From: Macrostomum lignano
Lineage: Eukaryota
DNA: 64,000 nt
Assembly (NCBI GenBank): GCA_002269645.1
Contig: NIVC01000518.1
Location: 1-64,000, forward strand
Direction of reading: 5' to 3'
Shown here: one piece after another, positions 5,545 to 46,698 of the stretch
Numbering within the stretch: position 1 is the first letter of the stretch
Layout: every line of letters begins with the position of its first letter
The notes under the pieces: model-generated
Databases searched by the model: none
Seen by the model: only the letters and a program-made list of their open reading frames with translations
What the model was told of the DNA's origin: nothing
Translations under genes and position numbers: made by a program

Positions 5545-6540
5545 GCCAACTAGTATATCTATAAGTGTCCCTGGGGTAGCTACGTGTACCAAGGACGACT
5601 GGATAAAGTGTCCCTAGGGTAGCTACGTGTACTAAGGAAAACTAGATAAATACTTCCCGGGGGTAGCTATATGAACCAAGGTCAACTAGATAAAGTGTCC
5701 CTGGGGTAGCTACGTGTACCAAGGACAACTGGATAAAGTGTCCCTGGGGTAGCTACGTGTACCAAGGACAACTGGATAAAATGTCCCTAGTGTAGCTACG
5801 TGTACCAAGGACAACTGGATAAAATGTCCCTAGTGTAGCTACGTGTACCAAGGACAACTGGATAAAATGTCCCTAGTGTAGCTACGTGTACCAAGGTCAA
5901 CTAGATAAAGTGTCCCTGGGGTAGCTATATGTACCAAGGTCAACTAGATAAAGTGTCCCTGGGGTAGCTATATGAACCAAGGTCAACTAGATAAAGTGTC
6001 CCGGGGGTAGCTATATGAACCAAGGTCAACTAGATAAAGTGTCCCGGGGGTAGCTACGTGTACCAAGATCAACTAGATAAAGTGTCCCTGGGGTAGCTAC
6101 GTGTACCCAAGGTCAACTGGATAAAGTGTCCCTGGGGTAGCTACATGTACAGAACAACTAGATAAAGTGTCCCTGGGGTAGCTACATGTACCAAGGTCAA
6201 CTGGATAAAGGGTCCGTGGGGTAGCTACATGTACCAAGGTCAACTGGATAAAGTGTCCCGGGGGTAGCTATATGAACCAAGGACAACTAGATAAAGTGTC
6301 CCTAGGGTAGCTACATGTACCAAGGTCAACTATATAGTGTCCCTAGGGTAGCTTCGTGTACCAAGGTCAACTGGATAGTGTCCCTAGGGTAGCTACGTGT
6401 ACCAAGATCAACTAGATAAAGTGTCCCTGGGGTAGCTACGTGTACCCAAGGTCAACTGGATAAAGTGTCCCTGGGGTAGCTACATGTACCAAGGACAACT
6501 AGATAAATACTTCCCGGGGGTAGCTACATGTACATGTACC
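5545..6540. repeat. 43-bp minisatellite (AAAGTGTCCCTGGGGTAGCTACGTGTACCAAGGACAACTGGAT), about 23 copies
   Basis: Period 43 measured between 5701 and 5744; variant units are present. Confidence 0.95.
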
Positions 6541-6589: not shown

Positions 6590-7360
6590 TGTTGTGTAAT
6601 GCAAAATCTCCGGGGGGCGGCTCGTGATCCTCGAGCAGCTACGGCCTCCTAAGACTAAATACCAGGGTACAAGTACCCCTTCAGGGTGGCGAGCCAGTGA
6701 TGGCGTCCGACACTCTGACCGAGCTGCCGGTGTCGGGCGGTGCGTACCATCGCCTCTCGTTCCTAGCCAGCAGCTCGTCCCTACGGCAGTACCCGATACA
6801 GTATGTCTCGTACTGAACAATGAACAACACAACGAGACTCAAGTTCTTACTGAGGAATGAACACGGCGGCGAATTAGGACTAGCCGGTAGCGCGGATTCT
6901 CAGACGTTGCGTACCCGTAGGGGCGTCTCGGTTCTAATCGATATGGGCAGTGGAATCTCAGAGCTGAGTTGGGTTGGAAGGTAGCAGCCAAAGTTGGTCC
7001 CTCACTGCCGCTACACCGCGCTAAATATATATTTGGGTTGGCCGGCTAGGCCGCGGGGAATCGCCCCCCGCGCCCACCCGACCAGCCACACAACCAGCTT
7101 AGCACATTACAGCGAGAAAGCTGCTGATTGGCCGGCGCGTGAGAGAGGCGGCCCGTACCAATCAGCAGCTGCGCAAGAGACGGAAAACTTGGGGGGGGAC
7201 GCGCTGAGAGGGGTGGCGCAGCCAGCCAAAGCCGGCTGGCTCAGACAGACTGGGGTGGGTGGTGCATAAACAACTGAGGAGGGAAAGTGCAGTGTCCCAG
7301 TGCGCCAATTAACTGCAAGCCTGAGATCGCTAGGCAGTGAAATTACACTACGGCACAACA
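6590..7360 (-). repeat. 3' LTR of the Gypsy element
   Basis: Begins TGTTGTG and ends CACAACA (7-bp inverted termini). By eye it differs from 14271-15047 by about 13 substitutions and about 4 small indels. Confidence 0.95.
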
Positions 7361-7373
7361 CCCTCCCCCTCCC
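7361..7373 (-). promoter_or_regulatory. Polypurine tract (GGGAGGGGGAGGG on the minus strand)
   Basis: Directly abuts the 3' LTR. Confidence 0.9.
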
Positions 7374-7508
7374 AAAAGAGAAGGAAACAAAAATGAAAAA
7401 AAATTACTATAAAGTACCATAGACGAACCATACAAAAGATTAATAGTGCAAGGACAGTGCAATGGCGAGACGAGCATTTGTATTTGTCTGCTGGCATTTT
7501 GCACACAG

Positions 7509-9158
7509 TTAAATATTATAAAATTCACGCGCAGCCGCAGCCAGTCGACCAGGTAGAGCCCCGTCGCTTCGCTCCTCAGTAAGCCAGGTCGCCGCCTTCC
7601 GGACATCAGTCGGCTTGCCCGGGTTTCCCGCGAATGGTGCTGATGATGCGACTAGCAGCCGGTCGGACGGTATCGCTGCGACGCATCGGGCATGCCATCG
7701 GCTGTTGGAGACCCGGGCGGTGACTTCAAATATCAGTCTTGGCAACGACGCTAGGTACAGGCTGAGGGTGTCTTTGGGCCAGTCGGAAGATTCGACAACT
7801 AGAATGCGACAGTTTGCAAAGTCCGACGACACTAGCAACCGTAAGAACTGGTGCCAGGCCGAGCCACCGGGTTCGACTGGGCTACGTCTACGCTCTCGCA
7901 AACGAACCAGGAGGGGTAGATCTCGTTTATTTGCTAGCCCAACCTGTAGCTCCAGGGCTGCCATTTGTTGCTCCACACTGATTGCAGTATTCTGGACGTC
8001 CAACTCGGCTTCACCGACAGCCACTACCCTTGTCCATTCGCCCGCTATGAAACGCTGCAGGTCGGCAGCCAGCGTGGTCATGAGCGGTGCCGCTGACGCC
8101 CTCAATCCGAGCGCAAAGTGGATCCGAGAGTCACATGAGCCGGGCAGTTGCGGGGTTTGACGGTCTCAAATAGAACGGTGAATTCACTACCGACACACAG
8201 GCTTCTACGCGACTACGCCGTCCAGGACAACTGGGGCAACTAGGGCATCTAGGTCTTCTTGAGGGCATTCTGGGTCGAGGAAATCCGCTTCATCGACGGC
8301 CTTCTCTGCCTGGTCTTTGGACTTCGAGTCCGGGGCCACTAGTACCGTTAGCTCTCGGAGTTTTGACAGGAGTGCCCCGCCGTTCAGCAGGCTCATTTTC
8401 TTGATGCATGTCATTACAAATCCGATTGATGCAGTCAGCGCTTCGTTCGACAGCACTCGAAGGCCCCGCCTAGATGACCCTGGGCGGCGCTTTCGAGGTG
8501 ACACATCAGACGCTATGAAACTCAGCGCAACCCCTAGAGAATCGGAGACCCATCGCCGAGATTCCAGGCCTGCCAAAAGGAACAGTTCTTCCAGTCCTGA
8601 TATGCATTCCTGCGCCTGAGCGATCCGACCGATCCGCAGATGCTGGGCCAGGTGATTCCGGAGGCTTCTGTATCTGACCTCAATCGACTCAGGGACTCTT
8701 GGTGGGCCTGATCGCGCGACCATTAAGACTCCACCCGCCGGCGCAATTGGGGTCGCATCAACGGCGGGAGGTTCGTCTTCATCGTCACTGATGACCACGA
8801 TCCCCATGCTCTCGAGTCCGGCTCTTATTTCGTCCGGAAAACTGACTCCGGGTGGCGGGCTGAAGAACTGCGCGTACGATAGCGTGTTGCTCAGGGCTGC
8901 TTAACCGAATTTGTCGTATAGCGCTCTATAAAACGGGTCGCTCAGGACTGAATACGCGAATACCACCCGTTGGTAGGCCCCTGTGCTTCCGACGCCCACC
9001 TTGTCGGGGCGAAGTAGTAGTGAGCGCCGACGGAAGGCCACCTTTATGTCTCTCGGTGAAGCTGATTGAGCTACGCCGAGCAGGTCGTGCAGATCCGACA
9101 CTGCAAGGCCAGCGTTCAACTTGCAGGCACCCCAAAAAATGGAACTTGCTAAACGCAT
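7509..9158 (-). pseudogene. Accessory ORF of the Gypsy element (~549 aa reconstructed): J-domain, SIM-like, NLS-like and TatD/TATDN2-like domains; one nonsense codon and two compensating 1-nt indels
   Basis: Track ORFs 8901-9158, 8205-8807 and 7509-8105 are all in the same frame. TAA at 8901-8903 is followed by 31 open codons into MGIVVISDDEDE. J-domain: DLHDLLGVAQSASPRDIKVAFRRRSLLLRPDK...AYSVLSDPFYRALYDKFG. TatD motifs: RVVAVGEAELD, LQVGLANKRDLPLLVRLRE, AIPSDRLLVASSAP. Confidence 0.8.
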
Positions 9159-9451
9159 GAAAATACAATTACAACTGGATGAAAATACGAACCCGTACTG
9201 TACTCAGCAACTTGGAGGCGCGATGAGAAGGGTGAGAAAATGCACATCCCAGAGCGATTGATGGACAGATTGGCTCAGATTAATAGAGGATTGGGTCTCC
9301 GAATCGACGTGGCGGAATTCCTCGATTCGCACGAACAGGGCGACAATTGAAATCCTGCTCGGGAGGAGCGGCTACACGAGGCTGATGGTGTGTGATGCGC
9401 TGTGCCCAAATGGGCTCTGGGTCCAATTCAGCGTCACTGTTCTGCTCAGAT

Positions 9452-12400
9452 TCAAAAAACTGGCATTGGGGGATTAGGAGCTTCCGGGCGGGAATATCGC
9501 TCACGTGACCTGGTTCCCGCCGTTGCCTGAGTCCTCCTTTGAGCAGGAACGTGGGACCTAGAGCTGGCATCGATTTTCCTTAGGTTGTTGAAATGGACTA
9601 CCCTAGGCCTTCGCGCACCATCGTGCAGGATTCTGTAATTGACATCGGAAAACTTTTTTAGGACTTTGGCCGGGCCTTTCCAATAGCGGTGGAACTTCGG
9701 GATTTCATTCGGTTTAATCACGGGATCGTATTCTAGAACAAGATCACCTTCATTGATCTGAGCGCCACGAGCTTGGCTGTCATAAAGCTTCTTTTGCTTC
9801 CTCTGATAGGTTCTGAGATTCTCCCTCACAGCCTCGTGTGCTTGCTGAAGGTCTTCAGTCAGTCGACGAGTGAACTTGGAGAAACTCTCTGGCACCCTCT
9901 CAGTCGGATTCTCAATGTCGATCGGGAGCTGCATTTCCCTACCAAACAGAATGTAGTGCTAGCCTGTGCCTCTATGCACGCTAGAACGATAGGCTAGCAA
10001 ACCGGGCGCAATGCAGTCTTCCCAATCCTTGTCCTCCTGCTCTAACTGACACGTTAACATGTGCTTTAGAGTCCTATTAAAGCTTTCTGCTTGCCCATCC
10101 GCCATCGGATGATACGGAGTGGTTCGACACTTGCGGATGTCTAGCAGAGAACAAAGGTTCTTCATCAATGCTGACTCAAAATTTGATCCCTGATCAGTGA
10201 CTATCTCCTGTGGACAACCGAATGATGAAATCCAGTGCGTGAAGATTGCACGGGCTACTGTTTTGGCACGCTGATTTGCTAACGGGATTGCACACGGCCA
10301 TTTACTGAATGCGTCTTGGATTGTCAAAACAAATCTCGACCCATGCTTGGACTTCGGCAAAGGACCAATGATGTCGCACATGATTCTTTGAAACGGAAAT
10401 GAGCTCGGGATGGGTTGCAGTGGTGCCCTGCCTCTTGGCGATGGTTTGCACTTTGAGCACACTAGACATGTTCGGCAGCACTCCTCAACTCTACGAGACA
10501 GACCAGGCCACAAAAAGCGTTGCTTAAACTTTCCTTGAGTCTTCTTAACTCCGAGGTGGCATCCACTGACGCCATCATGAAGGATTTTGGCGGCTTCTTC
10601 TAACAGGGAATTTGGTAGGAGGATTCTCTTCTGTGAGTTCTCTGGCACTGTCAGGAGCAGTAGCCCATCTTCTAAGACTATTCGAGTCCTATGGGCCCAG
10701 ATCTCTCTCTCTCAACTAAACTACTGATCGGTTCATTTTGCAGCGCTTCACCTTCAAGTAACTGCCTTACTCGTTTCAGAGCTGGGTCAATTCTCTGAGC
10801 CTCTCTGATGCACTTGACGCTGAGAGGTGATGCTAACACAGCGTTCACTTGTTCAGGTGTTTGTGGCGAACTGTTACAGGAAGGGCACGACTCTTGGGCC
10901 CAATGCTTTCGAACTTTACGAGACACTGTCCGCATTCTGGTGAAAAATCCCTTTCCTGTGAACTATTTCAAACTCAAAACGCTGTAGCGTCTCTAGCCAT
11001 CGAGCGCACTGTCCTTCCACATCTTTGAGGTTCGTTAACCATGACAACGCACTGTGATCTGTTCGGATTTTAAATTTGCGCCCCAAGAGGTAATATTTGT
11101 AGGCCTTGACGAAGTGCACGATCGCAAGAAGTTCTAGTCTAGTCGTACAGTAGTTCTTTTCACACTCTGTCAGGGTCCTTGACCCATAGACAATCTCACT
11201 TTTTCGGAGCCGTCGGCTTGCACCTGAGACAGGACAGCTCCAATTCCTATTTTGGAACTCGCGTCGGTGTCAAGCACATACTGTCCAGCTGTTTCGGAAA
11301 AATCTGGGTAAGCCATCACTCCAGTCGAAATCAGAAGTCTCTTTAATTCACAGAATGCTCCTTGCTGCTCCCGGCCCCACTCGAACTTGGTGTTCTGGCG
11401 CAGGAGTTTGTACAGCGGAGCTGCTATGATCGAGAAATCACGGATGAAATTTCTGTAATAAGAACAGAGACCAAGGAATGATTGTAGCTCTTTGACACAA
11501 CTCGGAATAGGCCAATCGCTAATCTCTTTCGTTTTCGCTGGATCTGTAGCTATTCCTTCCGCTGAAACTACGTGGTCTAAAAACTTTGCCTCTTTGGACA
11601 GAAAATGGCACTTCTTTGCTTTCAGACGGATTCCTGCAGCTCGCAATCGGTCGAACCGGTCGAACACGTGCTGCAGTCTCTTAAAATGCTCTTCATAGGA
11701 CTTCGCAAAAACTATAATGTCATCAAAGTACACAAGGCACTCCTTCCATGACAGGCCAGTCATAACTAGGTTCATGAGCTTTACAAATGTGGCTGGGGCA
11801 TTTTTCAGCCCAAAACTAACATAGCGCCACGCGAACTGACCGCGGTTTGGGATGACAAACGCTGTCTTCAACTGGTCTCTACGGTCCAGGGGGCACTGAT
11901 GGTAGCCTGACGCTAGGTCCAGAGTGGAGAATACAGCGTTTCCTGATAGAGCTTCAAGCGTCTCGTCCATCCTAAGTGGAGGGAAAGGATCAGGAACGGT
12001 GACGTCATTTAGCCTACGATAGTCCAAGCATAAGCGGATAGAGCCGTCTTTCTTCCGAACAGGTACAACCGGGCTGACCCAAGGAGACTGGCATTCATAG
12101 ATCCTGTCGCATTCGAGCAGTCTATCAATCTCCTTGTCGATCTCCGGGCGCAGATGAAGTGGGATGCGCCGCGGGGCTCGCGGGTCGGCTTCGCTGAGCC
12201 GGTGTCAATGGTGTGCATTGCTAAATCAGTGGCGCCTAACTCACTGTCATCTTTTGCAAAAACGTCTCGATTTCGGCGAATCAATTCAGTGAATGAACCT
12301 TGCTGCTCTGGTGTCAAATCTGTTGACTCCCAGCTGCCGAGATTACTGACTGGGTCCCAACTGGTGTCAAGGGTAACCAAGTTAGCCTGTGCTGCAGGTT

Positions 12401-13259
12401 TCACTTCCTGAGCAGGAGGTTGGCTATCGTTTACAGGGGTGAACCAACCAACTTGCCTTCCTCTGGGCAGGGTCACTGGTTCGCCTAAGATGTTGGTTAC
12501 TTTAATCGGCAAAAATCCTTCAGCTGATGGGATGCCAATGGCTCTGGCCAATAACACTAATCCTTCATTCTGATAACGAGTCTCTGTTATTCCTGTGAAC
12601 TGGAAATTCCGGACACCTTTTCGACTTAATTTGGCCTGAATGATTTGGGATCTATTGTTGGGGACCGTTACCGATTTCGGGATGACAATCCGGCAGAGAA
12701 TAGGTCGCTCAGTTGTCATCCGAAATTGGAAGGTACCGTTCGATGTGGTGACTTGAAAGTTTGCAAAATCTAGCGTAGCTGCTTGACGACGAAATAAATC
12801 TGCTCCGAGGATGCATGGATTCAAGAGACTGGAGACGATTGTAAATTTGTGACTGAATTTTAGAGAGCCAATAAAAAATTCCACAACGCACTCGCCCAGC
12901 ACATCAATCGCATCACCATTAGCAACTTAAATGTTTGGTCCGATGGAACTCGGCACTAGCATGGATCTAGGCAGATTATTTTTCCAAACTCTCTCACTCA
13001 ACAGGGGTGTACTGGCACCCGTGTCGAGCAAACACGTGATCTTGGCTTTCTCGGAAAAGCGGATGTCAACAAAACCGAGTTCTGTACTGGATTCATGGGC
13101 GGGCTGGCTCGGTGCGCTGGGTTGGGCCTCTACTAGTGACTGGCTTGGGACCCTGGATGGCCCTGCCTCCAGGTCCCTCTCTCGTTTCCCATCTGTTGAT
13201 CCCTCGCTAGCTGCTGACACCTGGCTTTGACGTGGTTCGGCCTTCTGCAGTAGCTGCAC
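9452..13259 (-). pseudogene. Gypsy pol (protease, dUTPase-like spacer, RT, RNase H, integrase), broken by several frameshifts and stops
   Basis: Protease CLLDTGAST (12927-13259); RT FSTLDLASGYHQ...CLVYFDDIIVF (11170-12027); RNase H VLDTDAS and IRTDHSALSWL (10916-11119); integrase LHDGVSGCHLG...CRTCLVC, CDIIGP, VTDQGSNFES, GQAESFNRTL (9959-10648). Confidence 0.95.
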
Positions 13260-14100
13260 ACTATTGGGTTCCTACACTGACGGGTCACGTGATTGGTCCC
13301 AAAGCGTCGACCACACTGAACAGCTCTATGAGTCGGTGCTGCGGCCTGGGTAGGTTGGGGATTTGGGTGCTCACGATGGCTGACTCCTGCACCCGGCCTA
13401 GCCTTCAAGGCCTGCAGCTCCAATCTCAGCTCTTTCAGTTCTTCGCGGAGTCTGACTGTCTCATCTTGCGTAGTGGACGAGTTCACTGAGGGCCATGGCT
13501 TCTCGGTGCTTGCCTGAGCTGTGCGGAGGGATGCCACACTCTGTCTTACCCGCCTACAAGTTGCGTCGAGGGTCTCTGGCTCCTGCAGTAGCAAGTGCTC
13601 ACGAACTCTATCGGCAATTCTAGCACCTAGCAGGAACCGGTCCCTGGCCAACTCATCTCTCTGATCTGCCGGCAGGTTCGGATAGGCCCGACGGACAATT
13701 TCGCGAAGGGCGTCGGCATAGCTTTCCACTGACTCATCCTTCTTTTGGTCCCGACTCCTCAATTCGATCTTACTGTCTTGCGGGGTGTGATGCTGGTTGA
13801 ATCGTTGTGAAAGGCGTTCAACAAAATCTTCAAACTCTAGATCGTCCGACAGTTCAAGATTGGCAATAGCTCGATAAGCTGTATTGAAGTCCATCAGGCT
13901 AATTAGGTGCTGCTTCCTGTCTTCTTCAGGGATCTCTGCAATCAATCTCTGATCTCACAATACGCTGTAAACTGCTGCATCCACAGTGCAAAATCCTGAC
14001 TCAGCACAAACTTGGATGGTCGGGGCACTCTTTGCCCTACGTTCAAATTATTCTGCACTCTAGCTGTAAGCGCATTGATGAGGTCGTCAACGTTGGCCAT
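13133..14100 (-). pseudogene. Gypsy gag with a frameshift near 13945
   Basis: ATG at 14100 gives MANVDDLINALTARVQNN...DFALWMQQFTAYCE. It continues in the 13133-13945 frame with RDQKKDESVESYADALREIVRRAYP and zinc knuckles CGRRFGTNHVTRQC and CSYCRRPNHVKARC. Confidence 0.9.
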
Positions 14101-14250
14101 CGGGATTCGAAAGACAACTTAACAGGGAGAAAAGACTAAGAGATTGACCGGGATAGAGAAAGTGACAGATTAACAGTGCATAGATCTAAGAGGCGCGCAA
14201 GCTGCTGACAAATAAAAATACAACCCAGGTTACAGTAAACTAAACTCCTA

Positions 14251-14269
14251 AATCCTGGTCACGGCACAA
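14251..14269 (-). promoter_or_regulatory. Primer-binding site resembling the tRNA-His 3' complement
   Basis: Minus strand TTGTGCCGTGACCAGGATT follows the 5' LTR. It resembles TGGTGCCGTGACTCGGATT, the tRNA-His complement recalled from memory. Confidence 0.7.
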
Positions 14270-14270
14270 G

Positions 14271-15047
14271 TGTTATGTAATGCGAAATCTCCGGGGGGCG
14301 GCTCGTGATCCTCGAGCAGCTACGGCCTCCTAAGACTAATACCAGAGTACAAGTACCCCTTCAGGGTGGCGAGCCAGTGATGGCGTCCGACACTCTGACC
14401 GAGCTGCCGGTGTCGGGCGGTGCGTACTATCGCTTCTCGTTCCTAGCCAGCAGCTCGTCCCTACGGCAGTACCCGATACAGTATGTCCCGTACCGAACAA
14501 TGAACAACACAACGAGACTCAAGTTCTTACTGAGGAATGAACACGGCGGGAGCGGCGGCGAAGGACTAGCCGGTAGCGCGGATTCTCAGACGTTGCGTAC
14601 CCGTAGGGGCGTCTCGGTTCTAATCGATATGGGCAGTGGAATCTCAGAGCTGAGTTGGGTTGGAAGGTAGCAGCCACAGTTGGTCCCTCACCGCCGCTAC
14701 ACCGCGCTAAATATATATTTGGGTTGGCCGGCTAGGCCGCGGGGAATCGCCCCCCGCGCCCACCCGACCAGCCACACAACCAGCTTAGCACATTACAGCG
14801 AGAAAGCTGCTGATTGGCCGGCGCGTGAGAGAGGCGGCCCGTACCAAACAGCAGCTGCGCAAGAGACGGAAAACTTGGGGGGGGGACGCGCTGAGAGGGG
14901 TGGCGCAGCCAGCCAAAGCCGGCTGGCTCAGACAGACTGGGGTGGGTGGTGCATAAACAACTCAGGAGGGAAAGTGCAGTGTCCCAGTGCGCCAATTAAC
15001 TGCAAGCCTGAGATCGTTAGGCAGTGAAAGTACACTACGGCACAACA
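14271..15047 (-). repeat. 5' LTR of the Gypsy element
   Basis: TGTTATG...CACAACA, a direct repeat of 6590-7360. Confidence 0.95.
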
Positions 15048-16096: not shown

Positions 16097-17266
16097 CTAT
16101 GCGTGAGCAAACTGCGACCTGATTACCAGCTTCATGGCTGGGTCAATGTAGATCTCCTGTAGCCGCCTTGCCAGCGTGTTGTGCTCGCAGCTTCGTTCCT
16201 CAGGCACCGGGTAGTGTCTCAGCCGGCTCGTCGCAATACTCCTAGCCCTATAGATGGCGAAAGCCGAGAAGCAAGACTCAACCTTGACAGGTATGCTGTT
16301 TTGGACTGTAGCAATTTTATCAGTTATAATGCTGCGATCATATTCCGTGACGCTGGTGTACCGTTTCTTGCTGAAGTAGGAGCGGGCGCACGGGTCATAC
16401 AGGTCGTTGTTGAGGCGGGTATTAGCGCACAGGATGTCCAGTTTCGGCTTGGCGCTAAAGTAATACATTCCCTGGGCGATATTATCTAAACTCCAGGGTT
16501 TCCATTCAATATCCGGGTCGGTGACAATGACTAGATCCGCGGTTTCCTTTAAGTTGTCGTATATATAGTCCAAGTACATGTTTCTTAGAACGCTCATTAC
16601 AACACCGCGATCTATACGATCCTGCTCTGTGCGTTTCTGGCCCCATCCGGGTCTGTGAAGCTTACCAGACCGATATTTAATATTCATTTTGCAAGGCGCT
16701 CTTGAATTAATGGGCTGACACCCAAGAATCACTGTTTGGTTGTTTTTTTGAAGAACTTCATGGAGCAACTCGCGCGTGCCATCGGTTGAATCGTTTTCGA
16801 CAAAAATCAGCCAGTAGTCGTTGAATAGCTTTCCCAATCTGTGCATGCTGTCGATGTTTTTCCGCAAGCGTACTCTGGCATTCTGCACTGTTGCCACAAA
16901 AACCACGTTCTTACGTAGCATCCACTGTCTACCGATCTGCGCCCGGTAGCTAAAGTTACGTTCTTGATCCTCTAGGCGCATAAGAGGCATTCGTGTCCGT
17001 CTTTGAATGAAAAACATTGAGCTGTCTTGCAGCCGCAGGAGTTCGGCATATTGTTTATTAAACTCCGATGAATTCGATTCAATGCGTGCATTCAGTTGCG
17101 CTGGCTCTTGTAATTCCTCCAGGCGGTCGCTGATAGATTCATAATCCCCAGAGCAGTCTGATGGAAAAGTTTTTATCAAAAGTATTATGCAAGAAGAGAC
17201 GACGATGCAGCACATGAATAGCGTTTTTCGCCGCAAGCAGAATAGGCTTTGCTTTCTGAAAAACAT
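16097..17266 (-). CDS. Intronless type II membrane GT-A glycosyltransferase (GT2-like / CAP59-like), ~389 aa from the ATG at 17266
   Basis: N-terminal basic tail and TM helix (KTLFMCCIVVSSCIILLIKTF). Motifs LIFVENDSTDGTRELL, VMSVLRNMYLD, VIVTDPDI (DxD), PVKVESCFSAFAIY and SCEH. Open for 1.17 kb. Confidence 0.8.
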   Translation of the reverse strand: MFFRKQSLFCLRRKTLFMCCIVVSSCIILLIKTFPSDCSGDYESISDRLEELQEPAQLNARIESNSSEFNKQYAELLRLQDSSMFFIQRRTRMPLMRLEDQERNFSYRAQIGRQWMLRKNVVFVATVQNARVRLRKNIDSMHRLGKLFNDYWLIFVENDSTDGTRELLHEVLQKNNQTVILGCQPINSRAPCKMNIKYRSGKLHRPGWGQKRTEQDRIDRGVVMSVLRNMYLDYIYDNLKETADLVIVTDPDIEWKPWSLDNIAQGMYYFSAKPKLDILCANTRLNNDLYDPCARSYFSKKRYTSVTEYDRSIITDKIATVQNSIPVKVESCFSAFAIYRARSIATSRLRHYPVPEERSCEHNTLARRLQEIYIDPAMKLVIRSQFAHA

Positions 17267-18455
17267 TTTCGAAGAAGTTCTGCAGTAGATAATTGGTACT
17301 TTTGCTAAAAATGAATAGTTATAAACTCTATTCTTATAGCTACTCGTAGTTTCGTACACGATAAAAAAACAAGAAATTAAAAGTCGCACCTAATTGCATA
17401 TTTATGCAAGAAGGTTTCTTAAAAACACTTAAACGTCGTTAATAGATATAATTCTTGTTTGTATAATAAACTGATTGTATATTTACTTAAAGTCTACATA
17501 AAAAAGCAATTTATTTTTGTTAAACTTACTACTTTTCGGATTTACTGCAAGATGTTGCCTAATTTACATGCGCATTTATTATAATTTTTTTAAACTTGTC
17601 TTAGTATTATTCAGTAAGTAATTGTAATATTTGAAACAGAAACGTTTGTGGTACTTAATGCGCTATTCTTTACGAATTTGCTAATTAAATTTGTTAATTC
17701 CTACATACAGGTTATATTATATATAATTAAATAAGTTTTAAGTTCTATAACTTTTGTAGCGTTGTACGGTATATAGATAATAATATGAATGGAAATTTTG
17801 TATTTTTTCATTTATATTTTAATGATTTTAGGCGTTTAAATTGTCCTTAATTAGGAATCTGTACTGCATTGCATTGGTGGTCACTAATTTTTTTACATTT
17901 ATATATTAAAATGTGCATATAAGCTTGGTATAGTAATTTAATTTAGTGATTTAGTAAAATGTAGTAATGTAGTAAGTAACGCAGTAAAATGCAATAATTG
18001 TATACAGTACGGTAAAATATTTTTCAAAATTCAAATGTACATAATTCATGAGACTCGCGATCAGTACCAAATAGTATACTGCACACTTCATAAATCATAA
18101 ATGTAATTAGACAAAGACACGCCTACCCGATAGAAAAACGTTGAAAACTTTCGAAGTCAGCACTGGTACTTTGTACTTGGATTGACTTTTAAAGTACTCA
18201 ATGCTTGGCGTTGCTGGTACTTGGAGAGTTTATTATGTTTTTAGCTACTTTCTATGGCTTTCAAAGTATTCAATGTTTTTTTACCGGGTAATCTGTAAAA
18301 GTTTTTCGTCTACCGGTACATTTGCAATTTTATCTTTAAGTTCGCTCATAGAGCATGGTGTGAGCCTTTTGGGCTCTCGGGCCCTAAAAATAGTGCCCGG
18401 AAAATAGCGTGCTTTATCTCATATAGAGCATATATATAATAGCATATATATGATT

Positions 18456-18952: not shown

Positions 18953-21900
18953 TGTAGTGACTGTGCATCAGGCCTAGGTGTTGTAACTAACTAACTTTGA
19001 GGCTAGAATTGTTCAATTACCTTATATGCATCGTGCGTTCAATCATGGTATCGTTGTTTCGATTGCGTAACACTGTTTTCAACGTGCACATGAGTATAAA
19101 TATATTGAGCGAGACTCAAGTGTCTCCAACTGAATTGAATTTAATCAATCAACTAGAACACAACAAATGGCGACGAGCGGACTCCCGTACCCAGCGGAGT
19201 TTCAACCAGTACCAGGCGAACCTCCTGTGCCATGGGCAAGGTGGATCAAGTCATTTGAGAACTTCCTGGTAGCTGGAGCTCTCGAAGAGGCATCAGAGAG
19301 TCGGAAAAAGGCGATCCTCCTGCATCTGCTTGGTGAGGAAGGACGCCGCCGAGCTGCAAACGTCGATGCAAGCAAGTCGCTTCAGGAGACCAAAACGGCA
19401 CTGAAGGCGATTTTCAGCTCGTCGAGAAGCGTCATAGCAGAGCGCTTCGCCTTTCGGCAGCGAGCCCAGCACGACGGCGAGAGCATCGGAGACTACGTGA
19501 TGGCCCTGAGAGAACTGGCAACAAACTGCAAATTTGGCACCTTTCACGACGAAATAATTCGAGACCAACTTGTGGAGAAAACCTGCGTACCTCGCATTAG
19601 GGAAAGACTCCTGATGGAGGAGGACGATCTGACGCTAGATGACGCCATCAAGAAGGCTGAGCGAATCGAAGCAGCCATCAGAGATGCCAAGCAGGTCAGC
19701 GGCCCAGAGCTCCACGTGAAGGCGCTGAGCAAGAAGCCGAAGCCAGCTGCTCGCCATGAGAAGACCGCAGCAGCAGGTCCAAAGTGCACTCGATGCGGAG
19801 GCAACCACGGACACAAGGGCGAATGCAAGGCGATGGGCCAGAAATGCAGACGATGCGGCAAGACGAACCATTTCGCGAAAATGTGCCGCATGAAAGCGGT
19901 CTCTGCGATCGACACCAAAGAGCCTGCAGAGTCCAGTCTGACGGTCCTGGCCGTGAACAACAAGAGCACAGACAGCTTATTCTGCGAATGCCGTCTGGGC
20001 GGACAGCTGATTCGACTGCAAATCGACTGCGGTGCTGCCGTTTCGTTGCTCAACATGGAGACGTTCAAGAAGTCCTTCGCTAGGCACCCGCTGCTTCCGA
20101 CGAGCACAAAACTGGAGGCATACGGCGGATCTGCGATCAAGACCATCGGCAAGGTCGAGCTTCCAGTGACGTTCAACGGCATCAGGACAGAAGCCACATT
20201 CTACGTCGCCGACAAAGGAGCGAACATCCTGGGCCGCGACCTGTTTCAGGCCCTCGGATTCAAAATCTTCCAAGGTGACAACAGAGTGATGAGCATCAGC
20301 GAGACTACGATCGAGCGCGACTTCCCCGGAATCTTCGACGGTCTGGGCCGGTCCAAGAGCTTCATTCACCGGACAAAGATCGACGCCTCGGTCAAGCCAG
20401 TGTCTCAGCCAATGCGGAAGCTGCCGATCGGCCTGAAGGACGAAGTGACGTCAGAGATCAGCCGGATGGAGCAACAGGGCATCATTGAGAAGGTCGACGC
20501 GTCCGAGTGGGTTAGCAACGTTGTCGTGACGCGCAAGAAGGAGTCCAACAAGGTTCGTCTCTGCGTGGATCTGCGGCAGGTCAACAAGGCGGTGATCGCG
20601 GACCGCTATCCGGTACCGTCAATCGAGGACCTATCGGCCAGCATCAACGGCTCGAAGTGCTTCAGCAAGCTGGACCTGCGTCAAGGCTACCAGCAGATTC
20701 CGCTGCATCCAGACTCTCGAGGACTGACGTGCTTCATCACCGATGCCGGCCTGTACCAGTTCACCGTGGTGCCATTCGGGCTATCTAGCTCCGGAGCTGC
20801 CTTCCAGCGAGCCCTGCAGACGGTGCTTCGAGGAGCTCCTGGCGCCATCAACATCGTGGACGACATCCTGGTGCACGGCAAGGACGAGACTGAGCACGAC
20901 AAGAACCTCCGAGAAGTCCTAGGGCGGATTCATCGCGAAGGCTTCACACTCAATCGAGAGAAGTGCAAATTCCGGCAGGCGAGCGTGGATTTCTTCGGAT
21001 TGGTCATCTCTGCAGACGGCATCAAACCGACCAAGTGCAACGTCGACGCAATTCTAAGAATTCCTGAGCCATCAACGGTCGCGCAAATTCAATCGTTTCT
21101 CGGAGCAGTGAACTTTTTGCACAAGTTCATACCGCATTACTCAGCAATTGCCGAGCCTCTGAGACAACTGCTCAAAAAGGACGCGGACTGGCACTGGGGT
21201 GAGCGGGAACGTACAGCCTTCCGTACACTCAAGTCAGCCGTAACCAGCAGCCCAGTGTTAGCTCATTTTGACTGCCAAGCTGAGACGTACGTCACCTGCG
21301 ATGCAAGTCTAGACGGACTGGGGGCAGTGCTCAGCCAAGTACAAAACGAAAAAGAGGTGCCAATCGCGTTCGCATCGAGAGCACTCAGCCCAGCGGAAAA
21401 GCGATACTCAGCCGGAGAGCGAGAAGCCCTGGCCTGTGTATGGAGCATCGAACGCTGGCACTACTATCTATACGGCAGACGAGTAACGCTGCGCACCGAC
21501 CACAAGGCCCTGACAACTCTGCTCGACTCGAAAGGCATGGGGCACAGGCCTCTTCGCATTCATCGATGGGTCGAGAGACTTCGCGGCTACGACGTCCGGT
21601 TTGAGCACATCCCTGGCGCTGACAACAAGTGCGCGGACATGCTGTCCAGATGGGCCACGACGGAGCGCGTTCCAGCCGAGGAGACCGACGAGGAGGGCTA
21701 CGTCTACGCAGTCGTCGACTCGAAGACAACGCTGACGGCAGACGCACTGGCAACGGCGACCAAGGAGGACGAAGTGCTGCAGGCGGTTTTGCAGTACATC
21801 TCGGGCGGCTGGCCATCGAAGGTGGACAGCTCTCTAAAGCCGTACTTCAACGTCCGGGACGAGCTGTTCTGCTGGAACAACGGTCAGTGCCTCGGTCGTG

Positions 21901-23277
21901 GTGAACGCGCGATCATCCCGACGAGCCTGCGACTTCAAGTCATCGAGGAGGCCCACGAAGGGCATCCGGGCGTCGTTCGGTCAAAGCAGCGGTGCCGCGA
22001 CACGGTCTGGTTTCCTGGAATTGACCGGCAGGTGGAGGACTACGTCAAGAACTGCACGGCCTGCACTCTGGCGGAGAAGTCCGGCAAGCCTCAACAGACG
22101 ATCGTGACACCAATCGAGTGGCCAGATGGACCGTGGGACAAGGTCGAGATCGACATCTTCGGCGAGGTCGCCGCGGCTCCTCGACACCAGCGGTTTCTAC
22201 TGGTGATCCACGACCTGTACAGCAAGTGGCCGGAGATTGCAGCCATGGAAACCGTCACCTCTGCCAACATCATCAAGACGCTTCGGAAGCTATTCGGCCG
22301 GTGGGGAGTCCCGAAGATGCTGATCAGCGACAACGGACCCCAGTTCGTCAGCGACGAGTTCGAAGAGTTCCTGCGAGCCGAGGGCATCAAGCACAGCCGA
22401 GTGAGCCGGTACTACCCGCAAGGCAACGGCGGAGTCGAGCGATTCAACCGGAGTCTGAAGGAGGGCCTGGCAGCGAACCTGAGGGCGGGAGCGAAGTTCG
22501 AGGACGCCATCGACCTGGTGCTCAAGACCTACAGGACCAGCCAGCACGCTCTCACCGGGCTGACTCCAGCCGAGCTGATGATCGGGCGCAAGCTGCGGTC
22601 CGGACTGCAGCTGCTCAGGCCAACTCCAGTGCAACAGCGGGACGACAGCGACCTGCGAGACAGTATCGCACAGAGGCAAGCCAAGAATGCCGACTACACC
22701 AACAAGCGAAGGCGAGCTCGTGACTCTATGCTCCAGGCCGGAGACTGGGTCTGGCGACAGACGCCGCACCGAGCGCACAAGCTGGCGACCCGACTGAAGG
22801 AACCGCTAAAGATCGCCTCCAAAGCAGGGCGCAACACCTTCGTGCTGTCCGACGGTACAAAGTGGCAAGCGAGTCGGCTGGTTAAGTGCAACAGCCCACC
22901 GGCTGACAACGGCGCGGCCGACCAAGAGGACGACTGGTTCGATTTGCCGCTGCCGCCGGCTCCGCCCCCACGGACGGGCGAGCCGCCACCTCCACCTGAG
23001 CTTCGAAGGTCAACTCGAGCTCGACGGCAACCGGCGCGTTATCCTCTTCCGGAAGGGGGGAGAATGTAGTGACTGTGCATCAGGCCTAGGTGTTGTAACT
23101 AACTAACTTTGAGGCTAGAATTGTTCAATTACCTTATATGCATCGTGCGTTCAATCATGGTATCGTTGTTTCGATTGCGTAACACTGTTTTCAACGTGCA
23201 CATGAGTATAAATATATTGAGCGAGACTCAAGTGTCTCCAACTGAATTGAATTTAATCAATCAACTAGAACACAACA
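18953..23277 (+). mobile_element. Intact Ty3/Gypsy LTR retrotransposon (Mag-like), 4325 bp, with 5-bp TSD CGCCC
   Basis: Identical 213-bp LTRs at 18953-19165 and 23065-23277. TSD CGCCC at 18948-18952 and 23278-23282. PBS TGGCGACGAG at 19168 (tRNA-Ser-like). PPT GGAAGGGGGGAGAA at 23051-23064. Confidence 0.98.
19167..23069 (+). CDS. Single gag-pol polyprotein, 1300 aa
   Basis: Two Cys/His knuckles (CTRCGGNHGHKGEC, CRRCGKTNHFAKMC); protease IDCGAAVS; RT KLDLRQGYQQ...NIVDDILV; RNase H VTCDASLDGLGAVL...RTDHKAL; integrase HEGHPG...CTAC, IDIFG, SDNGPQF, GVERFNRSLK. Confidence 0.97.
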   Translation: MATSGLPYPAEFQPVPGEPPVPWARWIKSFENFLVAGALEEASESRKKAILLHLLGEEGRRRAANVDASKSLQETKTALKAIFSSSRSVIAERFAFRQRAQHDGESIGDYVMALRELATNCKFGTFHDEIIRDQLVEKTCVPRIRERLLMEEDDLTLDDAIKKAERIEAAIRDAKQVSGPELHVKALSKKPKPAARHEKTAAAGPKCTRCGGNHGHKGECKAMGQKCRRCGKTNHFAKMCRMKAVSAIDTKEPAESSLTVLAVNNKSTDSLFCECRLGGQLIRLQIDCGAAVSLLNMETFKKSFARHPLLPTSTKLEAYGGSAIKTIGKVELPVTFNGIRTEATFYVADKGANILGRDLFQALGFKIFQGDNRVMSISETTIERDFPGIFDGLGRSKSFIHRTKIDASVKPVSQPMRKLPIGLKDEVTSEISRMEQQGIIEKVDASEWVSNVVVTRKKESNKVRLCVDLRQVNKAVIADRYPVPSIEDLSASINGSKCFSKLDLRQGYQQIPLHPDSRGLTCFITDAGLYQFTVVPFGLSSSGAAFQRALQTVLRGAPGAINIVDDILVHGKDETEHDKNLREVLGRIHREGFTLNREKCKFRQASVDFFGLVISADGIKPTKCNVDAILRIPEPSTVAQIQSFLGAVNFLHKFIPHYSAIAEPLRQLLKKDADWHWGERERTAFRTLKSAVTSSPVLAHFDCQAETYVTCDASLDGLGAVLSQVQNEKEVPIAFASRALSPAEKRYSAGEREALACVWSIERWHYYLYGRRVTLRTDHKALTTLLDSKGMGHRPLRIHRWVERLRGYDVRFEHIPGADNKCADMLSRWATTERVPAEETDEEGYVYAVVDSKTTLTADALATATKEDEVLQAVLQYISGGWPSKVDSSLKPYFNVRDELFCWNNGQCLGRGERAIIPTSLRLQVIEEAHEGHPGVVRSKQRCRDTVWFPGIDRQVEDYVKNCTACTLAEKSGKPQQTIVTPIEWPDGPWDKVEIDIFGEVAAAPRHQRFLLVIHDLYSKWPEIAAMETVTSANIIKTLRKLFGRWGVPKMLISDNGPQFVSDEFEEFLRAEGIKHSRVSRYYPQGNGGVERFNRSLKEGLAANLRAGAKFEDAIDLVLKTYRTSQHALTGLTPAELMIGRKLRSGLQLLRPTPVQQRDDSDLRDSIAQRQAKNADYTNKRRRARDSMLQAGDWVWRQTPHRAHKLATRLKEPLKIASKAGRNTFVLSDGTKWQASRLVKCNSPPADNGAADQEDDWFDLPLPPAPPPRTGEPPPPPELRRSTRARRQPARYPLPEGGRM

Positions 23278-39511: not shown

Positions 39512-40048
39512 GCTAGGACTACTAGTGTGAGTTATTACTGTGTTCTCTAGCGGGTCCGCTGGTCTTATCATCTAGCTCTTTTGCGTTAACGAGTATAAAA
39601 GATAGCCAGCTATTATACTTGGATACTTCGCTGGCTATAAGATGGGGCTTCCGTTAAAGTTGAATGACCTTCTAGAGTAGTCCTTAGACAGGACTCAGAC
39701 TAGACGCCGCCAGTTATTTGAGCGCAGCATACGATCGCGCATGACAGCTCACAGGAAGAGTAAAAAACTCTTGGGAGGCATAAATAAACCCCTCAACGCA
39801 TTGAGATTGGGCGGATTGTAAAGTGCAAGGACTGCAAGTCGCCTTGTTGTGGCGTAAAATACAGTCCCCGCTCTTCAACTCTTCTTGCTGAAAAGCAAAA
39901 TTGCGATGCTTCATCGCTGGAAAATCCAATAGAGATTTCTGCAGCAGCAGAACTGAGTCTATAGATTAATTAAGAAAAAAGCTAGAGAACCCAGCGCATG
40001 ATTGCACGCCAGATGAGTGAGGAGAGGGAAAGGTATAGAGGAGAATAA

Positions 40049-43000
40049 AGGAGAGGAGAGGAGAGGAGAGGAGAGGAGAGGAGAGGAGAGGAGAGGAGAG
40101 GACAGGAGACGAGAGGAGAGGAGAGGAGAGGAGAGGAGAGGAGAGCAGAGGAGAGCAGAGGAGAGGAGAGAGAGGAGAGGAGAGGAGAGGAGAGCAGAGG
40201 AGAGCAGGAGAGGAGAGGAGAGGAGAGAGAGGAGAGGAGAGGAGAGAGAGGAGAAGAGAGGAGAAGAGAGGAGGAGAGGAGAGGAGAGGAGAGGAGAGGA
40301 GAGGAGAGGAGAAGAGAGGAGAAGAGGAGAGAGAGGAGAAGAGAGGAGAGGAGAGGAGAGGAGAGAGAGAGGAGAGAGAGAGGAGAGGAGAGAGAGGAGA
40401 GGAGAGGAGAGGAGAGGAGAGGAGAGGAGAGGAGAGGAGAGGAGAGGAGAGGAGAGGAGAGGAGAGGAGGAGAGGAGAGGAGAGGAGAGGAGAGAGAGGA
40501 GAGGAGAGAGAGGAGAGGAGAGAGAGGAGAGGAGAGGAGAGGAGAGGGAGGAGAGCAGAGGAGAGGAGAGAGAGGAGGAGAGGAGAGAGAGAGGAGAGAG
40601 AGAGGAGAGGAGAGGAGAGGAGAGGAGAGGAGAGGAGAAGAGAGGAGAGAGAGGAGAAGAGAGGAGAAGAGAGGAGAGAGAGGAGAGGGAGGAGAGAGAG
40701 GAGAGAGAGAGAGAGGAGAGCAGAGGAGAGGAGAGGAGAGGAGAGGAGAGGAGAGGAGAGGAGAGGAGAGAGAGGAGGAGAGGAGAGGAGAGAGGAGGAG
40801 AGAGAGGAGAGAGAGAGGAGAGAGAGAGAGAGGAGAGAGAGGAGAGGAGAGGAGAGGAGAGGAGAGGAGAGGAGAGGAGAGCAGAGAGAGGAGAGAGAGG
40901 AGAGAGGAGAGGAGAGGAGAGGAGAGGAGAGGAGAGAGGAGAGGAGAGGAGAGAGAGGAGAGGAGAGAGGAGAGGAGAGGAGAGGAGAGGAGAGGAGAGG
41001 AGAGGAGAGGAGAGGAGAGGAGAGGAGAGGAGAGGAGAGGAGAGGAGAGGAGAGGAGAGGAGAGGAGAGGAGAGGAGAGGAGAGGAGGAGAGGAGAGGAG
41101 GAGAGGAGAGGAGAGGAGAGGAGAGAGAGGAGAGAGAGGAGAGGAGAGAGAGGAGAGCAGAGGAGAGAGAGGAGAGGAGAGAGAGGAGAGGAGAGGAGAG
41201 GAGAGGAGAGGAGAGGACAGGAGAGGAGAGGAGAGGAGAGGAGAGGAGAGAGAGGAGAGGAGAGGAGAGGAGAGGAGAGGAGAGGAGAGGAGAGAGAGAG
41301 AGGAGAGGAGAGGAGAGGAGAGGAGAGGAGAGGAGAGGAGAGGAGAGGAGAGGAGAGGAGAGGAGAGGAGAGGAGAGGAGAGGAGAGGAGAGGAGAGGCA
41401 GAGGAGAGGAGAGGAGGAGAGAGAGGAGAGAGAGGAGAGGAGAGGAGAGGAGAGGAGAGGAGAGGAGAGGAAGGAGAGGAGAGGAGAGGAGAGGAGAGGA
41501 GAGAGAGGAGAGGAGAGGAGAGGAGAGGAGAGGAGAGGAGAGGAGAGGAGGAGGAGAGGAGAGGAGAGGAGAGGAGAGGAGAGGAGAGAGAGGAGAGGAG
41601 AGGAGAGGAGAGGAGAGGAGAGGAGAGGAGAGGAGAGAGAGGAGAGGAGAGGAGAGGAGAGGAGAGAGAGGAGAGGAGAGCAGAGGAGAGGAGAGGAGAG
41701 GAGAGAGGAGAGCAGAGGAGAGGAGAGAGAGGAGAGGAGAGGAGAGGAGAGAGAGGAGAGGAGAGGAGAGGAGAGGAGAGGAGAGGAGAGGAGAGAGAGG
41801 AGAGGAGAGGAGAGGAGAGGAGAGGAGAGGAGAGGAGAGAGAGGAGAGGAGAGGAGAGGAGAGGAGAGAGAGGAGAGGAGAGGAGAGGAGAGGAGAGGAG
41901 AGGAGAGGAGAGAGAGGAGAGGAGAGGAGAGGAGAGAGAGGAGAGAGAGGAGAGCAGAGGAGAGGAGAGGAGAGGAGAGGAGAGGAGAGGACAGAGAGAG
42001 GAGAGGAGAGGAGAGGAGAGGAGAGCAGAGGAGAGGAGAGGAGAGGAGAGGAGAGGAGAGGAGAGGAGAGGAGAGGAGAGGAGAGGAGAGGAGAGGAGAG
42101 GAGAGGAGAGGAGAGGAGAGGACAGGAGAGGAGAGGAGAGGAGAGGAGAGGAGAGCAGAGGAGGAGAGGAGAGGAGAGGAGAGGAGAGGAGAGGAGAGGA
42201 GAGGAGAGGAGAGGAGAGGAGAGGAGAGGAGAGGAGAGGAGAAGAGAGGAGAAGAGAGGAGAAGAGAGAGAGAAGAGAGGAGAGCAGAGGAGAGAGAGAA
42301 GAGGAGGGGAGAGAGAGGAGAGGAGAGCAGAGGAGAGAGAGGAGAGGAGAGGAGAGGAGAGGAGAGGAGAGGAGAGGAGAGGAGAGGAGAGGAGAGGAGA
42401 GGAGAGGACAGGAGAGGACAGGAGACGAGAGGAGAGGAGAGGAGAGGAGAGGAGAGGAGAGCAGAGGAGAGGAGAGCAGAGGAGAGAGAGGAGGAGAGGA
42501 GAGGAGAGGAGAGGAGAGGAGAGGAGAGGAGAGCAGAGGAGAGGAGAGGAGAGGAGAGGAGAGGAGAGGAGAGGAGAGGAGAGGAGAGGGAGAGAGAGGA
42601 GAGGAGAGGAGAGGAGAGGAGAGGAGAGGAGAGCAGAGGAGAGGAGAGGAGAGGAGAGGAGAGGAGAGGAGAGGAGAGGAGAGGAGAGGAGAGAAAAGGA
42701 GAGAGAGAGCAGAGGAGAGCAGAGGAGAGGAGAGGAGAGGAGAGGGAGGAGAGGAGAGGAGAGGAGAGGAGAGGAGAGGAGAGCAGAGGAGAGCAGAGGA
42801 GAGGAGAGGACAGGAGAGGAGAGGAGAGGAGAGCAGAGGAGAGAGGAGAGGAGAGGAGAGGAGAGGAGAGGAGAGGAGAGGAGAGGAGAGAAGAGGAGGG
42901 GAGAGAAGAGGAGAGGAGAGCAGAGGAGAGGAGAGGAGAGCAGAGGAGAGGAGAGGAGAGGAGAGGAGAGAGAGCAGAGGAGAGAAGAGGAGAGGAGAGC

Positions 43001-45867: not shown

Positions 45868-46698
45868 TGTTTGGTGTGGTCATAGACGACTCAGTCGCAC
45901 ACATATCCAGTCATGAGCTGTTGAAGCAATGCATCAAACTTGGAAATCAAAAAAGAAAACTAATGATAAAATTAAATAAGACGCTCGGTTAAGAGTGCAA
46001 ATATTACGCGACCCTGTTGGTCTTGACACACTCTTCCGCTAGAGTAGACGTCATAACAGAGAGGAGAGGAGAGGAGAAGATGAGGGTAACGGCTACTGCA
46101 GTTACGAATCTGCAGTAGCCGTAATAGTTACTAATAGTTACTATTAGTGATAGTTACTAATCTCATAACTACCATGGTAGTTGCTAAGTTCGCTACGCAC
46201 TTTCGAATATACGAGGTAATAAACATATTGTGAAGATTGTTCTATAAAGTTATATTAGAAGATCCGCATCAAGAATTCGTTGCCAATCCAGATTTTTGTT
46301 AAATTGAAGCGTCCCTGGCAGTAATCCTTGGTTGCTGTTTACTCGACCTTCCAGTGTCACCACCGCGTCTGCCAATGTAGTTTCTTAACAGATTTTCTAT
46401 TTTTTTAGTCCGTGCGTTCACTCTCTTCCCTTCAAATAAAATGTACAGCTCCACCCACCTCAAGCTGGTTTTGGACTAAGGAAATGTACATTCAGTTTAA
46501 AGTGTACAGCTGAAATGTACAGCTAGAGCGAAGAGAAAACACAGTTTTGAAGTAAAAAAACGGCGAAAACTGTTGGAGTGGATTAAAAAGATTTGATACA
46601 TATAAATAATTTCTCTGCATCTAAACAAATTTTAAACACGAGTTTTACTGTTTCTAATAGCTTAACAACACAGAAAGCGAACCAAACAGCCCAATACG

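Follow-up and report, generated by a model that had tools for sequence, protein, structure and literature searches.

The 64,000-nucleotide stretch of Macrostomum lignano DNA analysed here in full (NCBI GenBank assembly GCA_002269645.1, contig NIVC01000518.1, positions 1 to 64,000; hereafter the window) is repeat-rich animal DNA, and its positions 6590-15047 hold, on the minus strand, a Ty3/gypsy long terminal repeat (LTR) retrotransposon. The element is assigned to Ty3/gypsy since it has two TG...CA LTRs, a primer-binding site, a polypurine tract and the order gag, protease, reverse transcriptase (RT), RNase H, integrase. Downstream of pol, which ends at 9452, and ahead of the polypurine tract, a further open reading frame (ORF), ORF3 (features in Table 1), occupies the position of env on the gag-pol strand. 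According to our analysis, the barrel encoded by ORF3 is a member of the TatD nuclease family by descent and, judged by its motifs, not an active TatD. ORF3 is probably a captured accessory gene for a two-part, non-catalytic protein that was kept for binding over cutting.

Table 1. Features of the ORF3-bearing Ty3/gypsy element, in window coordinates
Feature	Position	Strand	Basis
ORF3: J-like domain, helical linker and TatD-like barrel, ~550 codons	7509..9158	-	read through with X at stops
J-like domain	8904..9098	-	Pfam DnaJ, E 3.7e-12; in-frame stop follows at 8901-8903
Conserved segment after J-like domain	8805..8900	-	15/32 residues identical to relative; 0/1000 shuffles reach score
Helical middle region	8346..8690	-	model helices 158-220, pLDDT 82-91 over 161-200
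TatD-like TIM barrel, predicted to have 5/6 class II metal ligands replaced	7512..8300	-	Pfam, phmmer, Atlas (model-free); ligand mapping; model
Strand-2 segment in another reading frame	8152..8208	-	three-frame comparison with relative
Retained bridging Glu (GE motif, strand 4)	8010..8012	-	invariant in 52/52 rows, alignments A3 and A4
5' LTR (TGT...ACA)	14271..15047	-	self-BLAST, 96.7% to 3' LTR
Primer-binding-site-like sequence	14252..14269	-	position directly after 5' LTR
gag, two frames	13133..14100	-	Retrotrans_gag, PNMA and zinc-finger Pfam matches, each under curated cut-off; translation
pol: protease, RT, RNase H, integrase and C-terminal p58	9452..13100	-	broken by stops and frame changes
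Polypurine tract	7361..7373	-	purine run abutting 3' LTR
3' LTR	6590..7360	-	self-BLAST; ends read from sequence

This copy of ORF3 is broken by the stop after the J-like domain and by two compensating frame changes around strand 2 of the barrel, and it is colinear with residues 337-776 of a predicted M. lignano protein, P0004 (tblastn E 8e-38). The strand-2 segment scores 46 against this relative, a value reached by 1 of 2000 shuffles, with only 15 and 16 in the two remaining frames, which agrees with the frame that an earlier note on this DNA had chosen for the stretch VEACVSVVNSP (8208-8152). J and TatD homology explain the two ends of ORF3. The middle region found no family match (none in Pfam, E>=0.15 in the PDB, best Atlas score 0.77), and its match to the relative lacks significance, as 215 of 1000 shuffles score at least as high; its likeness by eye to the TFIIS N-terminal domain is our unsupported assumption. 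We had likewise presumed the segment after the J-like domain to resemble the autoinhibitory helix of class B J proteins, which alignments with those proteins did not show. In a Pfam search, three pieces of ORF3 gave no env (fusion glycoprotein) match. The sole hint on expression comes from acceptor-like AG sites at 9175 and 9149, from which we guess that ORF3 might be expressed from a spliced or trans-spliced subgenomic RNA. Two basic clusters look by eye like nuclear localisation signals, PRKRRP in the linker (~8470-8500, minus strand) and RLRERRR after strand 5 (~7880-7900, minus strand), the latter within an 8-residue insertion that is missing from the relative.

The descent of the barrel from TatD is supported by several kinds of comparison. 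Pfam TatD_DNase (PF01026) matches 7512-8165 with E 6.7e-8 and 32.7 bits against a cut-off of 27, while the relative stays under the cut-off at 20.2; all three phmmer matches in the PDB at E<=10 are TatD proteins, YjjV among them, albeit weak (best E 0.013); and five TatD-type NCBIfam models match, all far under their own cut-offs. Atlas features, computed from the single sequence, retrieved TatD clusters in 30 of 30 matches (best score 0.94). AlphaFold2 models show an alternating strand-helix barrel both for the relative's module (mean pLDDT 74) and for the window ORF3, in which X stood for stops (mean pLDDT 64, barrel core 80-95). With Foldseek, ranks 1-16 for the window model are all TatD entries, and VIA places the relative's model on TatD structures with Z 20-24.6 and a root mean square deviation of 2.1-2.7 over 212-221 residues. 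These models are partly circular, because 50 of the 52 alignment rows are canonical TatDs, and the window model holds off-frame residues at strand 2; Atlas agrees independently. The TatD-like domain proposed in the earlier note thus stands, and the amidohydrolase-type TIM barrel that it proposed to check is the fold predicted, with TatD structures matched first. Of the range it had given, 7512..8282, the domain holds, while the true start lies just outside at 8300 and the domain turns out to be part of a fusion. For the TATDN2-type origin suggested in the earlier note, which is putative, the weak affinities within the family are mixed, with YjjV on one side and, tied at E 1e-4, a class II-like and a class I-like protein (class read from motifs). 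Among GTDB contigs, 249 pattern matches yielded no confirmed prokaryotic relative. Nor do viral structures point to a viral donor: the only match among them at E<=0.001 is an uncharacterised Yasminevirus protein of 18% identity.

The metal ligands were mapped against a canonical set of 80 bacterial TatD loci plus one further protein, P0007; a filter on the N-terminal motif kept 72 of these 81 and removed 9, which makes the strand-1 counts in this set circular but not those of the other columns. The strand-4 Glu, the strand-5 and strand-6 His and the ETD motif occur in 72/72 of them and the His of the strand-3 GxHP motif in 71/72. TatD proteins carry at strand 1 the motif HxH in class II or (G/A)xN in class I (PMC10085689, accessible part); the window has AxF there and the relative KxY. 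The strand-3 His is Arg in the window and Lys in the relative, the strand-5 His is Arg in both families, and the strand-8 ETD reads ASS in the window and TSA in the relative. At strand 6 three registers compete and none gives the window a His: the bacterial profile puts Val or Leu at the His site, the class I-like protein puts Glu. Both families do have a Glu 0 to 2 residues past this position, on it in one alignment, and a replacement of His by Glu is one of the competing readings. By alignment, the ORF3 barrel keeps, out of six class II metal ligands, the bridging Glu alone and lacks the other five, which is in line with the loss of most ligands claimed in the earlier note. The six motifs that the note quoted are all present in the minus-strand translation, and one of them had been misplaced: FLDPECP was taken for strand 1, which we assign to AVDEADFL, six residues upstream (8300-8277). 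A 29-column ungapped profile gives 21.7 for AVDEADFL and -7.2 for FLDPECP, and the former register sets Asp and Gly 25 residues apart, as in 49 of the 63 canonical TatDs with a measurable spacing; a 9-column window alone does not separate the two (9.6 vs 10.2). The His pair is missing under either register, with Ala and Phe in its place under AVDEADFL.

When we searched 1.84 billion representatives for homologues, four matches at E<=0.001 were obtained, of which only P0004 and P0005 are strong (E 6e-21 and 8e-19), the other two being ordinary TatDs at E 1e-4. The relatives are the M. lignano predicted proteins A0A1I8I457 (P0004) and A0A1I8HEH7 (P0008, a partial third copy), plus P0005, with the module at residues 330-766 of P0004, 2429-2868 of P0005 and 119-173 of P0008. 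In P0004 and P0005 it spans 440 residues, is 97% identical between the two and, over J domain through strand 8, colinear with ORF3; the three copies are 97-100% identical within the module, and their flanks are unrelated on both sides, which suggests that the module is a dispersed repeat. All three appear to be chimeric gene models in which the module is joined to unrelated exons, and they are annotated only as "J domain-containing protein"; P0005 also has two RNase H domains, and in P0004 and P0005 the module breaks off at one and the same residue, ahead of the last helix. The module is ~40% identical to the window ORF3 (24/62 residues in the J part, 67 of 168-174 aligned over strands 3-8), has the same layout of J domain and barrel, and lacks the same ligands.

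This second family, together with the age of the insertion, dates the losses. The LTRs, each of ~775 bases, differ by 18 mismatches in 776 aligned bases (2.3%) and 3 gap events, close to the ~2% divergence assumed in the earlier note. To turn the canonical residues into those of ORF3 takes 15 or more base changes, spread over 7 codons, whereas at 1.2 to 2.3% divergence only 0.25 to 0.47 of these 7 codons are expected to have been hit since insertion. That an active TatD decayed after insertion, or that assembly errors removed its ligands, might be suspected from the stop and the two frame changes in this ORF3 copy and from the further ones in gag-pol. At least 15 substitutions in 7 codons have a probability of ~1e-23 at 2.3% per site, and an independent second family shows the same losses; this explanation, of which the earlier note had already called the decay unlikely, is thereby refuted and we give it practically no weight. 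Because so many changes are needed and because the second family lacks the same residues, the comparison of sequences shows that the predicted metal site had been dismantled by the time of this insertion, in a forerunner of both this family and the second, ~40% identical one.

The two families have in common not only what was lost. At 25 of the 67 positions identical between them the residue occurs in <10% of 48 canonical rows; part of these 25 are soft, since the MAFFT register near strands 6-7 is uncertain. Among them are the strand-5 change from His to Arg, the strand-3 change from Pro to Ala, a change from Gly to Glu two places after the kept Glu, a Glu and an Arg at strand 7 and the strand-8 change from Thr to Ser. 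The active site looks, from these alignments, as if it had been rebuilt and then conserved, not eroded. Since the new residues that the two families have in common are on the active-site face, we consider it likely that the altered barrel is under selection. A different view would make ORF3 a passenger, that is, a retro-captured host gene for a J-like/pseudo-TatD fusion, with the second family being that gene or another repeat and ORF3 of no use to the element. The relatives are indeed known as protein models without genomic context, a neighbouring intact gypsy element has no ORF3, and the M. lignano assembly is redundant and of hidden allotetraploid origin, by the accessible text of PMC12801592, so that the three copies could be one gene; the ORF3s of rotifer elements, as far as the accessible text of PMC5408684 covers them, likewise show no clear departure from neutrality. 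The unrelated flanks of the three copies speak against a passenger, as does an identity of 40%, which should be higher had that gene been captured recently. Nor was a stand-alone protein found in length-limited searches, which scored only the 8000 candidates that share most words with the query: residues 150-550 of the window ORF3 matched none among proteins of 302-963 amino acids (aa), and the relative's module matched only a 173-aa fragment below 675 aa and only itself between 675 and 2151 aa. We therefore regard a passenger as unlikely.

The other end of ORF3 had been overlooked in the earlier note, which was right in deriving the domain from TatD and did not see that a J-like domain without its signature motif is fused to it. 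The J fold is recognized by PF00226 with 46.6 bits against a cut-off of 27.8 and by 49 PDB sequences at E<=0.001, the best matches among them being of class B (DNAJB12, E 1.3e-11). The HPD motif, which is essential for the stimulation of Hsp70 and whose changes abolish it (PMC13254874, accessible part), is replaced by RPD in ORF3 (9011-9003) and by an RPR region in the relative.

Whether a barrel so altered can cut may be judged from the human enzymes, for which we refer to the accessible part of PMC10085689. In the two-metal catalysis of TATDN1, Glu112 bridges both metals, His149 and His174 hold metal B and Asp222 holds metal A, while His77 binds the substrate phosphate; in single mutants, only E112A cut both activities, with little or no effect of H149A, H174A, D222A or E220A, whereas in the class II TATDN3 the single change D218A lowered both activities 30-fold (PMC10085689). 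The Glu kept at strand 4 is the equivalent of E112, and we infer that the strand-3 His, now Arg or Lys, corresponds to His77. All ligands but this Glu were lost together, with an Arg at the position of a metal-B ligand, which makes canonical two-metal catalysis improbable: on the mapped residues, DNA cleavage of the two-metal TatD kind is probably beyond the ORF3 barrel, and a canonical nuclease activity appears rather unlikely. The earlier note had called the domain catalytically dead already in the active element; the losses do precede the insertion, and catalytic death is likely, with the kept E112 equivalent as a reason for caution; the role that the note suggested, in binding DNA or RNA:DNA hybrids or as a decoy, is conjectural. 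One could instead picture a remodelled, active nuclease, in which the Glu and new carboxylates would hold Mg or Mn and ORF3 would trim RNA or complementary DNA (cDNA) ends, as has been proposed for the DEDDy ORF3s of rotifers. The invariance of the strand-4 Glu, the Glu that both families have at or just past the strand-6 His site, the further Glu common to both at strands 4 and 7, and the survival of TATDN1 after single loss of H149, H174, D222 or E220 all fit such an enzyme. It is hard to reconcile with the loss of every metal-A ligand besides the Glu, with the Arg at metal B, with the best bacterial-profile register, which has Val or Leu instead of Glu at the strand-6 His, and with the 30-fold drop in both activities of TATDN3 after D218A alone; we deem it improbable.

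For ORF3 as a non-catalytic binder, a reading that we put forward tentatively, as somewhat less than an even bet, we propose the following. Arg and Lys, placed where His once held metal and phosphate, would line a pocket able to grip a nucleic-acid end or a single strand without cutting it; the bound barrel would cap RNA and cDNA intermediates of the element against host 3' exonucleases such as TatD, and the J-like domain, unable to trigger Hsp70, might act as a docking or localisation module. Rpp30 provides a case where a nuclease/metallohydrolase fold was kept as a binding module. Maelstrom and EXD1, cited in PMC5408684, are dead nucleases that have kept RNA binding.

Several observations count against this proposal. 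The sole retained ligand is the very one that is essential in TATDN1 single mutants. Both families gained Glu near the pocket, which could block it by pairing with the new Arg, or could hold metal, and the net charges, +3 and +1, are only mildly shifted from those of canonical TatDs (median -5, range -13 to +7). RPD is one substitution from HPD, so the change could postdate the insertion, although the relative too has Arg there. The second family is known from chimeric protein models alone, its location in an LTR element being putative, and two families are too few for an analysis of nonsynonymous to synonymous substitution rates (dN/dS). Both the binding and the inactivity of the barrel are predicted.

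If the pocket is plugged by Arg-Glu pairs, ORF3 could rather be a scaffold or an antagonist of silencing, its barrel and J-like surface sequestering host Hsp70/Hsp40 or a small-RNA factor. The functional motifs are gone from both domains and the new acidic and basic residues common to both families come in pairs, as such a protein would have them; moreover, HPD-less J proteins have been discussed as competitors or recruiters of Hsp70, and the HSV-1 protein ICP22 recruits Hsc70 without HPD (PMC13254874, accessible part). The host partner, on the other hand, is hypothetical, and neither LTR contains a canonical heat-shock element, with up to one mismatch allowed, and therefore no link can be drawn to those M. 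lignano families that PMC12801592 describes as heat-induced. We hold this possible, yet doubtful. Returning to the non-catalytic binder, a bolder extension would be that a flatworm LTR lineage built a counter-defence protein from a disarmed J domain and a disarmed TatD, which shields its intermediates from host TatD nucleases or acts as a decoy for them. This is speculative and, in our estimate, not likely; were it true, TatD enzymes would restrict retrotransposons, a role that was not found in the literature searched.

As to the rest of the element, the Pfam matches of pol are RVT_1 (E 1.3e-28), RT_RNaseH_2 (E 1.8e-9), Integrase_H2C2 (E 1.6e-15), rve (E 2.6e-12) and Integrase_p58_C (E 7.8e-10); RT, RNase H and integrase all exceed their cut-offs, and the protease was recognized by eye only, from its DTG motif. 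The target-site duplication is imperfect, the 4-base flanks of the 3' and 5' LTRs agreeing at 3 of 4 positions. We presume that the primer-binding-site-like sequence resembles tRNA-His; no tRNA genes were found in the window. Because several stops and frame changes split gag and pol, this copy is either dead or poorly assembled.

A 43-base minisatellite of ~22 copies (5563-6533) stops 57 bases short of the 3' LTR. In a second Ty3/gypsy element (18953-23277, plus strand), which is a very recent insertion and has no ORF3, the 213-base LTRs are identical, the target site is duplicated over 5 bases, and a single 1300-aa gag-pol ORF is intact. Elsewhere in the window are a 430-codon ORF in AT-rich DNA (16097-17389, minus strand) with a match just under cut-off to CAP59-like mannosyltransferase (E 2.8e-6), a family named from fungi; an intronless cytochrome P450 gene of 512 aa (46699-48237, plus strand; E 1.9e-89); an uninterrupted 1196-aa ORF without a convincing Pfam match (48937-52527, plus strand; best E 0.047); and ~6 kb of purine-rich short repeats (39959-45990) that produce several spurious ORFs, up to 2000 codons long.

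ORF3 is a real and, apparently, undescribed accessory ORF. In the literature searched, which did not extend to repeat databases and subscription journals, we found neither a TatD-bearing retrotransposon nor a fusion of two motif-less domains, and Repbase, Dfam or Biryukov et al. 2020 could already list ORF3. In their accessible parts, PMC12801592 catalogues the LTR families of M. lignano without mention of TatD, and with DnaJ only in an expression table, while PMC6338049 and PMC6431247 list accessory domains with neither TatD nor DnaJ among them. Accessory ORFs reveal host obstacles that retroelements must overcome. ORF3 may be a naturally arisen pseudoenzyme of the TatD family, and through it TatD nucleases or the Hsp70 system come into view as possible restriction factors of retrotransposons. 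M. lignano is a transgenic model with catalogued LTR families, in which ORF3 is testable.

Compared with the TatD nucleases (PF01026; E. coli YjjV, YcfH and TatD, human TATDN1 and TATDN3), ORF3 has in common homology, the predicted amidohydrolase-type TIM barrel, the GE motif, an LP before strand 5 and the strand-8 Pro. It differs by the absence of HxH or (G/A)xN, of His at strands 3, 5 and 6 and of ETD, by a structural identity of 16-20%, and by being fused to a J-like domain and borne by a retrotransposon. P0004, P0005 and P0008 have the same module of J-like domain, linker and ligand-less TatD, with a shorter linker and with the last helix missing from the models. The HPD-less J-like proteins Pam16, DNAJB13 and ICP22 resemble ORF3 in having a J fold with HPD replaced, whereas none of those described in the accessible part of PMC13254874 is nuclease-fused or retrotransposon-borne. 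Maelstrom and EXD1, in the accessible text, use a nuclease fold as a binding module, the role proposed for ORF3; they are host proteins of other folds and families, and no homology is claimed. The Juno and Vesta LTR elements of bdelloid rotifers (PMC5408684, accessible part) carry, like the present element, an enzyme-derived, non-env ORF3 downstream of pol. These encode DEDDy exonucleases or GDSL esterases, and with the former a 3' exonuclease fold was captured by an LTR element, as here; the fold there is DEDDy in place of TatD, the catalytic residues have stayed intact and no J domain is reported in that part of the source. The rotifer ORF3 exonucleases, with their intact catalytic residues, are the nearest precedent for the flatworm ORF3.
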